A stretch of DNA of 53,794 nt from a virus. Lineage: Duplodnaviria; Heunggongvirae; Uroviricota; Caudoviricetes. The notes under the pieces were generated by a model, which saw only the letters and a list, made by a program, of their open reading frames with translations, did no database searches and was not told the origin of the DNA. The DNA lies in IMG/VR virus record IMGVR_UViG_2740892439_000006, positions 1 to 53,794 of that record, one strand, 5' to 3'. Shown piece after piece: positions 12,455 through 16,206 of this stretch; positions within the stretch are counted from its first letter, which is position 1, and every line of letters begins with the position of its first letter. A program made the position numbers and the translations under genes.

Positions 12455-12761
12455 ACACTCTCCTTTCGAAATAAACGTACTGATTAATCATGCTCAGGGG
12501 CATTTCGAGTTTTTCCGCGATCTCACGGCGGGGAACACCACACTGATGAAGCTGCCGTGCCAGTTCTATATCGCTCTGCCGGTATTTGGCTGACGGATGA
12601 AAGTCTCCTTTCAGAATCATGCTGATCCCCAACTCCCGCGCTTTAGTCCTGACGGCATCACCGGTACGACCGATCAGCTTCCCAATACTCTCGACCGTCA
12701 TAGTTCCGGCGCACTGGCGGAGTATCATGATTTCTGCCCTTCCCCATCCCCGCCAGCTCAC
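12444..12761 (-). CDS. hypothetical HTH-like protein
   Basis: 105 aa ORF. Confidence 0.4.
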
Positions 12762-13369
12762 GCAGAACTCCTTCTAACCAAAAGAACGCCATCTTCAGAA
12801 ACAACGTTGCAGGACTTCAGGTAATTCATTGCCTCTTTCGGTAATGGATTCTTTGGATCGGCGTTTGCCAGGGATTTCGATAACCTCATGATAAATTTGA
12901 TCATTACCTTCTGGCGGAGCTTGTGCTCATGAGATAAAGAAAGGTAATAGGAAATGGTATGGGCTAAACGCTCACGAAGCTGTTCTGTGCCGTGATATAC
13001 AGCAGCGATATCACGCAGTGCATTGACCAGTTCCCGGTAAATATGCGGAGCAACCTGGCATTCAATGTTGGTTGGTGACTCATAAATTACAGTCAGCCCC
13101 AGCTTTTCAGCCAGCGCGTGCTCTGCACGAGCACCAACCGAATCTTCCCATCGATTGAGCAAATAGATCGCATCAGCAGAACGCACCATTGCCAGGCAAA
13201 TATCCATGTATTCACTCTGACAAAGGCCACCAGGTAACACAGCTGGATTCAGAACGATATGCCCTTCAGCCATCAACTCGCTCGCTTTCGCATTAAACGC
13301 CGCACGGTTGTAATCTGGATAACCAGTCATCGGCCCCGCGATGTAAATTTTCAAAACACGTTTCACCAT
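12758..13369 (-). CDS. DUF4406-like (nucleoside 2-deoxyribosyltransferase-like) domain protein
   Basis: N-terminal KIYIAGPMTGYPDYN motif; start at MVKRV coupled to upstream small ORF (TGATG). Confidence 0.45.
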   Translation of the reverse strand: MVKRVLKIYIAGPMTGYPDYNRAAFNAKASELMAEGHIVLNPAVLPGGLCQSEYMDICLAMVRSADAIYLLNRWEDSVGARAEHALAEKLGLTVIYESPTNIECQVAPHIYRELVNALRDIAAVYHGTEQLRERLAHTISYYLSLSHEHKLRQKVMIKFIMRLSKSLANADPKNPLPKEAMNYLKSCNVVSEDGVLLVRRSSA

Positions 13370-13524
13370 CAAAATTTCCCCAGAATCGTGACGCAAAACA
13401 TAAGCACTGCGAAAAGCTCAATACCAAGCTCAAGTAGCGCCAACGCCCCGAAAAACAACACATAGAACAGGCCAATCTCATTCACAGATGGCTGGTGGAT
13501 CGCACTTAAAGCTATAAGCATCAT
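13369..13524 (-). CDS. small membrane protein, first gene of leftward operon
   Basis: 51 aa hydrophobic; RBS tggaggac-ATG. Confidence 0.5.
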   Translation of the reverse strand: MMLIALSAIHQPSVNEIGLFYVLFFGALALLELGIELFAVLMFCVTILGKF

Positions 13525-13641: not shown

Positions 13642-14220
13642 ATGCAGAAACAGAGTTATTGGGAGAAACAGAGACAAAAAGCCATGCAAAAATTGGCTGA
13701 CCCGGCCTGGCGAGAGGAACAAAGGGCAAAGCGCCTTCAACAAGCTCAACGCCAGCAGCAGCGAGCGAGAGAAAAAGCCGCATCGCCTGAATATCGGCAA
13801 AAGAAAATTGAAAAAGCAAAGCAATATGAACAGCGGAGAAAAGATAAAGCTGTATCCGCTCCGCCCAAAAAAACACGCACGTCACGCGGCCTGAAAGGCA
13901 GATCACTCACAGCCGATGAACGCCGGATACAGACCGCTATCGGTACTCTCCCCTGCATTGCCTGCCATATTCACGGGCAACATAGCCCAGTGGTATCCCT
14001 GCACCATATCTTCGGGAGAACGGCAGAGAACGCGCATAAATATGTCCTCCCTTTGTGTAAATGGCACCACCAATACGCAGCGCCAGCCGAGGTCCGAGAA
14101 CAATATCCCTGGCTGGTCCCTGTTCATGCTGACGGAAAAATAGGCGGAAAAGCAGATTTCATGCGGCACAATGCCGATGAAATGACGTTGTATCAGATGG
14201 CGATTGAATTGATAAATTAG
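13642..14220 (+). CDS. ref: Ref-like HNH endonuclease
   Basis: LADPAWRE, SRGLKGR, LPCIACHIHG, SLHHI, LPLCKWHHQ, APAEVREQYPWLVPVHADG match P1 Ref as recalled. Confidence 0.8.
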   Translation: MQKQSYWEKQRQKAMQKLADPAWREEQRAKRLQQAQRQQQRAREKAASPEYRQKKIEKAKQYEQRRKDKAVSAPPKKTRTSRGLKGRSLTADERRIQTAIGTLPCIACHIHGQHSPVVSLHHIFGRTAENAHKYVLPLCKWHHQYAAPAEVREQYPWLVPVHADGKIGGKADFMRHNADEMTLYQMAIELIN

Positions 14221-14719: not shown

Positions 14720-14821
14720 AATACTGACTGTTGCGCCCTGGCATTATCGTGGGGTATATTTCTACGGCACCTTAGAAAAACGGGTGCCGGGATTGAGACC
14801 CCGGATAATGCAAAAGGCGAC

Positions 14822-14848
14822 ACAGACGCCGAAAGCGTCTTTTTTTGT
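14822..14848 (+). terminator. rho-independent terminator
   Basis: stem agacgc/gcgtct, loop cgaaa, followed by T7. Confidence 0.6.
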
Positions 14849-14895
14849 GTCATGCCATCGCACAGCCATACGTAGCGTATAGCTCCAAGATCAAT

Positions 14896-14971
14896 GGTAG
14901 TGCTGGCTGGGCTGCCGAAAGGCAGGCCGGTTCCCTTTTGCGCCGGTAGTCTCAACCCAGCCAGTGCTACC
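14896..14971 (+). ncRNA. candidate structured RNA (c4-like antisense RNA position)
   Basis: 16-bp stem ggtagtgctggctggg/cccagccagtgctacc enclosing hairpin ctgcc-gaaa-ggcag, about 60 bp upstream of small ORF plus antirepressor. Confidence 0.3.
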
Positions 14972-15031
14972 GCCATTGAGATTGAGACCTCACGCGGTAG
15001 CTCCTTAAATTAGCAAAAGGAGGCTGCCAAT

Positions 15032-15247
15032 ATGGCTACTATCCCTACCCCAACTCATTCTGAATTTATCTGGCGTTTCTATTCCTGCCAAAAGCACCTG
15101 TATATCTGCGTCATGGCTGCTACCGAATCAGAGGCGCGCTCATACCTTCCCGAAGAACCCTGCATTTTTGCTGCTCGCTTCACTCTTGATGCGATGGAGA
15201 TCCTCAATTACTGGAATCTGCCGATGAACTGCGTGGAGGTGCACTGA
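15032..15247 (+). CDS. small protein in Icd-like position
   Basis: 71 aa; RBS aaaggagg; stop overlaps ATG of antirepressor-like gene. Confidence 0.45.
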   Translation: MATIPTPTHSEFIWRFYSCQKHLYICVMAATESEARSYLPEEPCIFAARFTLDAMEILNYWNLPMNCVEVH

Positions 15248-16173
15248 TGAATCTGTCCATCTCTCAAAAAGCGACAATGACAAGTATTGAGATCGCGGAG
15301 CTGGTGGGTAAGCGTCCTGACAACGTTAAACGCACCATTGAACACCTAGCGGAACGGGGCGTAATAACTTTTCCTCAAATTGAGGAAAAGCCCACCGCAG
15401 GCCGCCCGGCGAGCTATTACGTCTTCGAAGGCGAACAAGGCAAGCGCGATAGTATTATCGTCGTCGCGCAGCTCTCTCCCGAATTCACCGCCCGGCTGGT
15501 GGACCGCTGGCGCGAACTGGAGAGTGCCAAAGTACAGTTAAAATCAAAAGCCGAAATCCTAGCTGAAATGGCGCAAATGCATCTTGAGCATGAACGCCGG
15601 ATCAACGCCGTAAATGCCCAGGTAGCCGAGGTATCAGCACAAGTATCGATGGTCGCTGAAACACTCGAGCAAATAAAGAAAGGCAATATTCCGGAAGGCT
15701 ACATTGGCTACCGCCAGCTGGCGGCGAAATGTGGCCTGACTGAAGCCAAATGCCGAAACCTGGTCAACGCTTACCGGATTCCCACCGATACGCATGAGTT
15801 TTTAACTCCCGATGGTTTGCTTGCGCGACGCTCCATTGTGGCCCTGGCCCCCTTCCGGAAAGCCTTTAAGCAGGTGATGTCGGAGGCAGAACCACGCAAT
15901 AAACGCTGGTATCATCCAAAGATGGGGATGTTTCAGGCAATCCACCATCCTGTGCCTGAAAGTCCAAAGGCAAACCTGTCGTTGCATACCGCCAGAGAGA
16001 GGATTAAAACAGGCTATGCAATCGTATGCCGTCGAGCATCCTGGCCTGAAGGTGTATGGGTGTGGCCCGAAGGTGGATCACGAAAGCACTGGCGCACTAT
16101 CCGGGATGGGAAAATCCATGCGATTGATTTAGCTCCAGAGGATGTTGTTGCTACGGACTGGATTGTTAGTTAA
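15247..16173 (+). CDS. Rha-family antirepressor-like protein with DUF2829-like C-terminus
   Basis: N-terminal SIEIAELVGKRPDNVKRTIEHL (Rha-like); C-terminal YAIVCRRASW...DLAPEDVVATDWIV resembles the DUF2829 region of ORF 972..1649. Confidence 0.55.
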   Translation: MNLSISQKATMTSIEIAELVGKRPDNVKRTIEHLAERGVITFPQIEEKPTAGRPASYYVFEGEQGKRDSIIVVAQLSPEFTARLVDRWRELESAKVQLKSKAEILAEMAQMHLEHERRINAVNAQVAEVSAQVSMVAETLEQIKKGNIPEGYIGYRQLAAKCGLTEAKCRNLVNAYRIPTDTHEFLTPDGLLARRSIVALAPFRKAFKQVMSEAEPRNKRWYHPKMGMFQAIHHPVPESPKANLSLHTARERIKTGYAIVCRRASWPEGVWVWPEGGSRKHWRTIRDGKIHAIDLAPEDVVATDWIVS

Positions 16174-16181
16174 TTACTGTT

Positions 16182-16206
16182 GCCCCGGCCTGTCCGGGGC
16201 TTTAAC
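16182..16206 (+). terminator. weak terminator-like hairpin
   Basis: gccccgg/ccggggc stem followed by ttt. Confidence 0.35.

Follow-up and report, generated by a model that had tools for sequence, protein, structure and literature searches.

The region at positions 14,822 to 16,173 of a 53,794-nucleotide (nt) stretch of viral DNA (IMG/VR record IMGVR_UViG_2740892439_000006, positions 1 to 53,794; this whole stretch is called the window, and coordinates refer to its + strand unless stated otherwise) very probably belongs to a D6-like phage-plasmid of E. coli as one of its two secondary immunity modules of the immI type, working like the c4-icd-ant locus of phage P1 and the isrK locus of Salmonella Gifsy-1. 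By function and architecture it is a P1-type immI module with a leader of the Gifsy-1/Shiga toxin (Stx)-phage type (IsrK). The sequence between 14500 and 16300 is 98.9% identical to that of Escherichia phage D6 (NC_050154, 73895-75710) and is matched over its full length by 86 complete E. coli plasmids, which identifies the window as a D6-like, P1-related phage-plasmid; the part with the RNAs and icd has matches in 439 PLSDB plasmids of ~90 kb. The D6 record already labels orf83 as 'Icd-like' ('similar to P1 icd') and orf82 as 'anti-repressor Ant', some Stx-phage records already annotate the isrK and C4 pair, and D6-like plasmids have been described as having two such regions, an ImmI with c4, icd and antirepressor and a further one with c4/icd (PMC6799933). 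A first-pass annotation, made by a model from the letters of the DNA, had described the layout; every feature it listed was confirmed at the coordinates it gave, but the layout was already published. The immI module itself is known, and its one unusual trait is that the Ant protein ends in a small Tad2-like domain of very divergent sequence.

A search of the whole window with Rfam at gathering thresholds gave exactly two matches, C4 and isrK. The C4 antisense RNA gene (RF01695, 14890-14977) scored 76 bits against a gathering score of 45, over the full model (positions 1-87/87), and the isrK match (RF01394, 14767-14845) scored 59.1 bits against a gathering score of 50, also over the full model (positions 1-77/77). 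The long stem-loop that had been noticed there (14896-14971) is the closing stem of the C4 match and encloses two internal hairpins; the fold of the 291-nt region has a z-score of -7 relative to shuffled sequences. In the predicted fold, the element b' (CCTTTTGC, 14934-14941) lies in the loop of internal hairpin 2, and the element a' (GTCTCAA, 14949-14955) in a single-stranded joint.

Both elements are complementary to sites in the leader of icd, the first gene downstream. All seven positions of a' form Watson-Crick pairs with the target a2 (TTGAGAC, 14982-14988), and all eight positions of b' with the target b2 (GCAAAAGG, 15013-15020), which bears out the complementarity between the stem-loop and the downstream mRNA leader that had been proposed for checking. 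Exact copies of the two targets stand upstream of C4: a1 (TTGAGAC, 14793-14799), in the loop of the second IsrK hairpin and complementary to a', and b1 (GCAAAAGG, 14810-14817), complementary to b'. The b2 site starts 19 nt before the icd ATG and overlaps the icd Shine-Dalgarno sequence (AAGGAGG, 15017-15023), which in the predicted fold is also buried by a local hairpin at ~14996-15028. The P1 record is annotated in the order a1 (7 nt), b1 (8 nt), c4, a2 (7 nt), b2 (8 nt), icd and ant1/2, with b2 18 nt before the icd ATG. The order of elements in the immI of P1 and P7 (a1 b1 - c4 - a2 b2 - icd - ant1/ant2) is thus the same as in the window, the C4 RNAs belong to the same Rfam family, b2 lies over the icd ribosome-binding site in both, and the four sites here are the equivalents of P1 a1, b1, a2 and b2 in length, order and spacing.

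We compared these sites in nine loci, namely the window, RCS47, phage 673R5, two Stx2-type phages, phiP27, P1 and two P1-like elements, which carry six different a and seven different b specificities. In eight of the nine, a2 and b2 are paired at all 15 positions by their cognate partners, whereas non-cognate combinations reach 9.7 on average; G-U pairs compensate for some of the changes among the loci. Such three-way co-variation argues strongly that the pairings are functional. Differences in the a/b sequences are the known basis of P1/P7 heteroimmunity; the a/b sequences of the window differ from those of P1, and hence its specificity differs as well.

The C4 gene is overlain by an open reading frame (ORF) of 39 amino acids (aa) (14894-15013), which starts at a conserved AUG in the 5' strand of the C4 stem. 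The Prokaryotic Genome Annotation Pipeline (PGAP) labels this ORF 'ash family protein' in many E. coli plasmids, and the position of its AUG appears to correspond to the first AUG of Gifsy-1 'orf45'. The stem-loop region could accordingly be read as mainly protein-coding, as the equivalent of orf45, with hairpins that are incidental or serve only as attenuators. The conserved start codon would fit this reading, as would the fact that in each of the six isrK-type loci the frame is open for 37-39 codons or runs on into the next gene without a shift; in Gifsy-1, moreover, translation of orf45 matters for the expression of anrP (PMC4825925). However, the equivalent ORF of P1-type loci has just 14 codons, every locus reaches 67-84 bits with the RNA covariance model, and the loop sequences co-vary with their targets and not as codons. 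According to PMC8198154, citing Citron & Schuster 1990, the c4 of P1 is established as an RNA. We consider a mainly coding function highly improbable, and the ORF was rejected as a conserved protein, its length ranging from 14 to 261 codons with no protein-family match, although it is kept as a possible leader ORF by analogy with Gifsy-1.

The 3' strand of the closing stem of C4 (14966-14973) has a complement downstream of the gene, GCGGTAGC (14994-15001), which overlaps the hairpin 14996-15028 that buries the icd Shine-Dalgarno sequence; an equivalent, GCGGTGG, is kept in three other isrK-type loci. In the read-through transcript before processing, this pairing may give an alternative fold, comparable to structures A and B of Gifsy-1.

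The first cistron of the operon is an icd-like gene (15032-15247), whose 71-aa product is 63% identical to P1 Icd (E = 4e-28), scores 50.3 bits on the NCBIfam model NF033153 (phage_ICD_like; cutoff 25), and corresponds to phrog_1426 and to D6 orf83. With a C4 RNA recognised by its covariance model, a true Icd homologue and pairing sites at the P1-equivalent positions, the resemblance to P1 c4-icd-ant that the first-pass annotation had pointed out is well founded. As also described there, the icd TGA (15245-15247) overlaps the ant ATG (15247-15249) by one base, as TGATG; ant starts on the icd stop codon in P1 too, and both modules reside in P1-related phage-plasmids. From this overlap we infer translational coupling, with translation of icd needed to reach ant. 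Just past the ant stop codon there is a GC-rich hairpin with a weak T tail (GCCCCGG-CCTGT-CCGGGGC, 16182-16200), read directly from the sequence and not reported by the terminator scan, which is a possible operon end.

The leader of the operon is of a different type from that of P1 (RF01394, IsrK, versus RF03163, c4-a1b1). It would form an IsrK-type small RNA (sRNA) with a Rho-independent terminator (14767-14848) and carries a1 and b1 as putative decoy sites. A probable sigma-70 promoter (14731-14760) consists of a -35 hexamer TTGCGC (14731-14736), an 18-nt spacer and a -10 hexamer TATATT (14755-14760), and transcription is predicted to start from it at ~14767, where the isrK model begins (position 1). 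In RCS47, 673R5, Stx2 F039 and phiP27, hexamers are placed identically with respect to the 5' end of isrK. A consensus promoter scan missed this promoter, because its -35 matches at only three of six positions, and no convincing hexamers for a separate C4 promoter were found within 14849-14889, either by eye or by the scan. The intrinsic terminator of the first-pass annotation (14822-14848) is present, as a stem at 14824-14840 (AGACGC-CGAAA-GCGTCT) followed by T7, with the T-run extending to 14848. It coincides with the 3' end of the isrK match and is part of the leader sRNA; it does not close the upstream gene.

This leader brings the module close to the Salmonella Gifsy-1 locus isrK - orf45 - anrP - isrJ (Hershko-Shalev et al. 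2016, PMC4825925), in which IsrK, made from its own promoter, ends at a leaky terminator, as in the layout proposed for the window, and the read-through isrK-orf45-anrP mRNA is translationally silent (PMC4825925). The short IsrK supplied in trans activates this mRNA more than 100-fold, and translation of the upstream ORF, orf45, is needed for that of anrP, by translational coupling (PMC4825925). Like Gifsy-1, the window would have a read-through transcript with a C4/STnc1160-like structured RNA, and a small upstream ORF that would be translationally coupled to an antirepressor-like gene. Unlike Gifsy-1, it has a true icd between C4 and the antirepressor gene, belongs to a plasmid prophage and has no match to isrJ at Rfam gathering thresholds. 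Binding of Hfq and trans-activation of the read-through mRNA are known only for the Gifsy-1 IsrK (PMC4825925). STnc1160, a processed RNA downstream of IsrK, was likened by its authors to the CI RNA of satellite phage P4 (PMC4825925). In P4 (seqA - CI RNA - seqC), the CI RNA belongs to the same Rfam clan as C4 (CL00128), and here too the sites with which the processed small RNA pairs exist in duplicate, flanking its own gene on both sides; in contrast to what is proposed for the window, P4 CI causes premature transcription termination of replication genes, and there is no icd or ant cargo.

Taken together with P1, where C4 blocks translation of icd and hence of ant (PMC8198154), these elements suggest a switch, in which RNA processing, translational repression, decoy action, the antirepressor activity and the role of the C-terminal domain are drawn by analogy from P1 and Gifsy-1. 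Transcription would start near 14767, and most transcripts would end at the terminator (14824-14848), giving an IsrK-type RNA of ~80 nt that displays a1 and b1, while read-through transcripts would carry C4, the leader, icd and ant. C4 would be released as a stable RNA, whose exposed a' and b' could pair with a2 and b2 in the leader. Because the paired b2 overlaps the icd Shine-Dalgarno sequence, icd would not be translated, and since ant starts on the icd stop codon, ant would not be translated either, so that the prophage would stay repressed; a superinfecting relative with the same a/b sequences would be silenced too. Since a1 and b1 on the short leader would compete for C4, we propose that the ratio of leader RNA to C4 sets the switch. 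When C4 is limiting, in a fresh infection or with an excess of IsrK-type RNA, Icd and Ant would be made, Icd delaying cell division and Ant antagonising a C1-type repressor encoded outside the window.

Ant itself (15247-16173), a 308-aa putative antirepressor of the Rha/Roi type, would be made of three parts, a Rha/Roi winged helix, a long helical middle and a C-terminal domain of ~65 aa that is most likely a trimmed Tad2 fold. It matches PHROG 63 ('anti-repressor Ant', phrog_63) from end to end (E = 3e-64), and more than 100 full-length Ant protein clusters are found, on ~90-kb E. coli/Salmonella contigs. The Rha-like N-terminus described in the first-pass annotation is recognised by the Pfam model Phage_pRha (PF09669) at aa 11-92, although with a borderline score exactly at the cutoff (29.9 bits for both); the D6 allele reaches 36.9 bits, and PF09669 is precomputed for nearly all close homologues. 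The winged-helix domain (aa 11-92) and the long helix that follows it (aa 78-144) are encoded by 15277-15678. In the full-length AlphaFold2 (AF2) model, the predicted local distance difference test score (pLDDT) is 70-90 for aa 10-140, with a winged helix-turn-helix (wHTH) at aa 10-76 and one long helix at aa 78-144; the model is reliable just for aa 10-145 and uninformative on the C-terminal domain, because the pLDDT of the C-terminal half is below 50. In tblastn, the N-terminal ~140 aa, the part shared with the Roi/Rha family (PF09669; HK022/HK620 Roi, P22 Rha), match Roi/Rha proteins of HK620, Stx phages and others, and are 45-60% identical to the Roi proteins of lambdoid and Stx phages. 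Unlike this part, the middle and the Tad2-like tail are confined to the D6 lineage among phage records, and only four of 741 phage records cover at least 80% of Ant.

Within the DNA-binding domain, the part with the recognition helix (15280-15430, Ant aa ~12-60) is strongly unlike the D6 allele, whereas the rest is near-identical. This divergence is a mosaic replacement within the domain, and it accounts for the two length classes of Ant, 308 aa and 313 aa. In some plasmids with an intact ORF, such as pPEC1021-1 and pEC213_2 (L002, L003), PGAP calls ant a pseudogene ('Rha family transcriptional regulator, incomplete, missing C-terminus', aa 1-232), probably because the unmodelled Tad2-like tail misleads the pipeline.

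Of the features of a P1-type immI, the module thus has the C4 model, the pairing of a' and b' with a2 and b2, the latter over the ribosome-binding site, the duplicates a1 and b1, an icd gene and the icd/ant overlap; two further ones, homology to Ant1/Ant2 and a P1 C1 operator, are missing. Together with several other observations, these two weigh against our assignment. A search of the whole window for the P1 C1 operator consensus (ATTGCTCTAATAAATTT, P1 Op51 type), allowing up to three mismatches, gave no match, and no homologue of c1 or coi was found in the window. Ant has no detectable homology to P1 Ant1 or Ant2 (best BLASTP E = 0.27), and since this is so despite the PHROG match, its antirepressor role is assigned by position and by label only, the labels being those of PHROG and the depositors. 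The members of the Roi/Rha DNA-binding family, to which its N-terminus belongs, are mostly uncharacterised. The promoter is proposed from a -35 with three mismatches, and the RNA switch is known here from sequence alone. From the missing operator, C1 and Coi it follows that the main repressor and its operators lie outside the window or are unlike those of P1; the C1 homologue of D6-like plasmids has been reported to be encoded elsewhere (PMC6799933), and it may use another operator.

Some of the same observations would also fit a protein that is not an antirepressor at all, but a DNA-binding regulator of the Roi/Rha type, acting as a transcription factor or interfering with host functions that depend on the integration host factor (IHF), with C4 control serving another purpose. 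Phage_pRha/wHTH is its sole curated domain, its nearest characterised relatives in tblastn are genes for 'DNA-binding protein Roi', NCBI names it 'Rha family transcriptional regulator', and homology to the P1 proteins is lacking. Yet the protein occupies the exact ant slot of immI, following a true icd to which it would be translationally coupled, and its PHROG 63 match is strong; by analogy, AnrP, encoded downstream of the isrK locus in Gifsy-1, induces its prophage (PMC4825925), and we regard a function other than antirepression as improbable. The parallel with P1 ant drawn in the first-pass annotation holds for the slot, but the protein is unrelated to Ant1/2. In contrast to the P1 proteins, the antirepressor of the window joins a Rha/Roi wHTH to a Tad2-like tail.

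This tail (Tad2L, aa ~242-308, 15970-16170) is probably a shortened and divergent Tad2 (DUF2829) fold. The first-pass annotation had compared it with the DUF2829 region of another protein of the window, the 225-aa product of the ORF at 972-1649, and the latter is indeed a canonical Tad2 (anti-Thoeris sponge) domain, located in the last ~85 aa (80 bits in Pfam, and 77 bits to ModTad2, PDB 9eib/8v3e); the N-terminal ~130 aa of that protein form a domain of unknown function (phrog_872/11049). For the Ant tail, Tad2-like (PF11195) is the only family reported by Pfam, in a sub-threshold match that covers profile positions 4-72 of 73. A profile of the C-terminal domain searched with HMMER against 1.84 billion representatives gave only six matches, so the family is very small; P0009 was discarded from it as a low-complexity repeat protein, P1 Ant1 is not a carrier of the domain, and a scan of genome contigs found no relatives. 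Tad2-like is the only recurring Pfam family among the members, being listed (E <= 10) by six of eight, and the best of them, P0010 (96 aa), scores 23.9 bits against the cutoff of 25. In hhalign, the family aligns with four Tad2 sequences over 65 columns (E = 1.4e-4, probability 52%). A Foldseek search with the structure model of the domain placed Tad2 chains in the top 16 positions among 350,542 chains (E 0.3-1.1).

The resemblance concerns both the fold and a few sequence patterns. Compared with the sponges SPO1 Tad2 (8SME-G), ModTad2 (9EIB) and HgmTad2/AcrIIA7 (8KBI), the Ant tail has a similar predicted succession of an N-terminal helix and a small antiparallel sheet, and the Tad2 patterns 'G-x-x-V-x-R-x-x-W' and, at the C-terminus, 'D-x-x-A-x-D-W-x-V' align with it. 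Several results speak against the Tad2 assignment: the Pfam match of Ant has 12 bits (E = 0.32) against a cutoff of 25, the structure model has a low-confidence pLDDT of 62, BLASTP between Ant and the ORF at 972-1649 gives no alignment beyond six residues, a PDB sequence search with the family profile and with P0010 alone returned noise and no Tad2 entry, and a small Tad2 hidden Markov model (HMM) run on 638 ORF segments of the window ranks Ant fifth and without significance (E = 3.3). In the reciprocal search of the same segments with the family HMM, the target was also fifth and not significant (E = 1.1). The likeness to the ORF at 972-1649 thus stands at the level of profile and fold, and fails in pairwise BLASTP and with the small HMM, and the HMM search of the C-terminus that the first-pass annotation had suggested ends below the Pfam cutoff.

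From the Pfam E-value, the lack of a BLASTP match, the absence of Tad2 entries in the PDB search and the fifth rank one could argue that the likeness is due to chance, or to convergence on a short 'RR-x-W ... D-W-I-V' pattern, in a tail that is simply a lineage-specific extension of Ant. Against this, four partly independent methods agree on the Tad2 family, each over the full length of the domain: the Pfam match takes up nearly the whole profile, P0010 falls just short of the cutoff, and hhalign extends over 65 columns. A chance resemblance seems unlikely to us, and we retain the trimmed, divergent Tad2 fold as the probable assignment.

Whatever its ancestry, the domain is a real and selected part of Ant, as indicated by its presence in the more than 100 full-length clusters and by a ratio of nonsynonymous to synonymous substitution rates (dN/dS) of 0.10-0.13 at dS 0.4-0.7, that is, strong purifying selection. 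It is met in three settings: as part of Ant, as a separate protein translationally coupled to Ant, or by itself. The fused form is that of D6-like elements, as in the window. The coupled form is found in the second immI-type module of D6-like elements, which lies outside the window next to repL (L012 2796-4198, L033-L051, and ~19.8 kb in phage D6) and comprises a1b1 (RF03163), C4, icd, a 242-aa Ant of the same type and a separate 65-aa ORF (P0016), whose product is 40% identical to the tail in the window and whose ATG overlaps the Ant stop codon, again as TGATG. The domain is alone in two P1-like elements, L011 (labelled a Raoultella plasmid by one source) and L013, in whose C4 module icd and ant are lacking and the gene for the free small protein comes immediately after a1b1, C4 and a2/b2, b2 lying at the ribosome-binding site of this gene. 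The domain is encoded in 37 IMG/VR loci, and in all 35 that had enough upstream sequence to be tested, a C4 gene lies ~1 kb upstream on the same strand; most of these loci come from D6 relatives and so do not count as independent cases. C4-gated operons are thus the only setting in which the domain is known, as their cargo. Among the top-ranked matches of a literature search, none placed Tad2/DUF2829 together with antirepressors or C4.

As to function, four residues make the main contacts of SPO1 Tad2 with glyco-cyclic ADP-ribose (gcADPR), namely W25, N26, W73 and D79, and the beta2-beta3 loop and helix alpha2 form its dimer interface (bioRxiv 10.1101/2023.05.01.538930). In the hhalign register, the equivalents of W25 and D79 are invariant in the family of the Ant tail, whereas N26 is replaced by P/S/H and W73 by I/Y/F/V; further differences are S76 to A/S and T78 to E/N/A. 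In addition, ~22-27 central residues, corresponding to the beta2-beta3 loop and helix alpha2, are absent. Scoring below the Pfam cutoff and with the contacts N26 and W73 replaced, the tail does not qualify as a member of PF11195, and a function as gcADPR sponge is not supported. Given the remote relationship, the missing central loop and the loss of two of the four main ligand contacts, the putative 'signal sponge' of the first-pass annotation is a hypothesis. Also in contrast to the known sponges, the domain in D6-like elements is fused or coupled to an antirepressor and is under antisense-RNA control.

We tentatively favour the view that the domain serves this type of Ant as an integral partner module, in binding the repressor or in assembly, rather than as an active gcADPR sponge. 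The main rival is that the domain and its free-standing relatives of 65-96 aa are working, Tad2-derived sponges or sensors of a small molecule, which C4 would allow to be made as a burst in a naive cell and keep silent in a lysogen; the fusion to Ant may then make antirepressor activity respond to an immune signal. The best structural matches are Tad2 structures, two of the ligand contacts are invariant, the free forms are as large as known sponges and make up the whole cargo of the C4 module in L011 and L013, and the purifying selection on the domain is strong. This would nevertheless have to be reconciled with the replacement of N26 and W73 and with the lack of the ~22-27 residues of the Tad2 dimer interface, and the same plasmid already has a canonical Tad2 domain in the ORF at 972-1649, so that we judge a working sponge or sensor somewhat unlikely. 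Two more elaborate ideas, which together we hold to be quite unlikely, go further. In the first, the domain would bind a nucleotide of host immunity or metabolism, as a sponge or as a sensor, and C4 would serve as an RNA gate, comparable to the Aca repressors in anti-CRISPR operons, that confines the domain to a burst when a naive cell is entered; the D6 fusion would let an immune signal modulate the antirepressor, so that defence signalling would be coupled to the lysis-lysogeny decision. In the second, the Tad2 fold would be the basis of a new class of very small antirepressors, represented by the free forms of 65-96 aa.

The surroundings of the module include a gene for a Ref-like RecA-dependent nuclease immediately upstream (13642-14220, +; 120 bits in Pfam), and a gene for a DUF4406 protein on the opposite strand to it (12758-13396, -). 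In D6, the module likewise has a Ref-like nuclease gene upstream, and pmgF-, simB- and mat-like genes downstream. The P1-like phages RCS47 and JL22 share the 5' cassette with IsrK, C4 and icd with the window, at 94-96% identity, and continue with a P1-type ant (for RCS47, L007 2002-2290 was compared with window 14766-15093). The b sites of RCS47 and the window are 2 nt apart, with matching changes in b', b1 and b2 (the b of RCS47 is GTCAAAGG). Evidently, the RNA immunity cassette has been exchanged between phage-plasmid lineages.

Since the a/b sequences can be read directly, they can be used to predict the mutual immunity of elements of the P1 and D6 types; the window and RCS47, for example, share a and differ in b. 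The a/b specificity of the second D6 module (TTGACAG / GTTAGTGA) is identical to that of phage P1, and a D6-type lysogen should therefore also silence the ant of P1. For annotation, the gene for an 'ash family protein' and the unannotated gap that recur in hundreds of E. coli/Salmonella phage-plasmids can now be assigned to C4 and IsrK-type RNAs. What the Tad2-like tail and its confinement to C4 operons add to the existing annotation is modest and weakly supported, but if the domain binds a signalling molecule or a repressor, it would link the folds of anti-defence proteins to the control of lysogeny.

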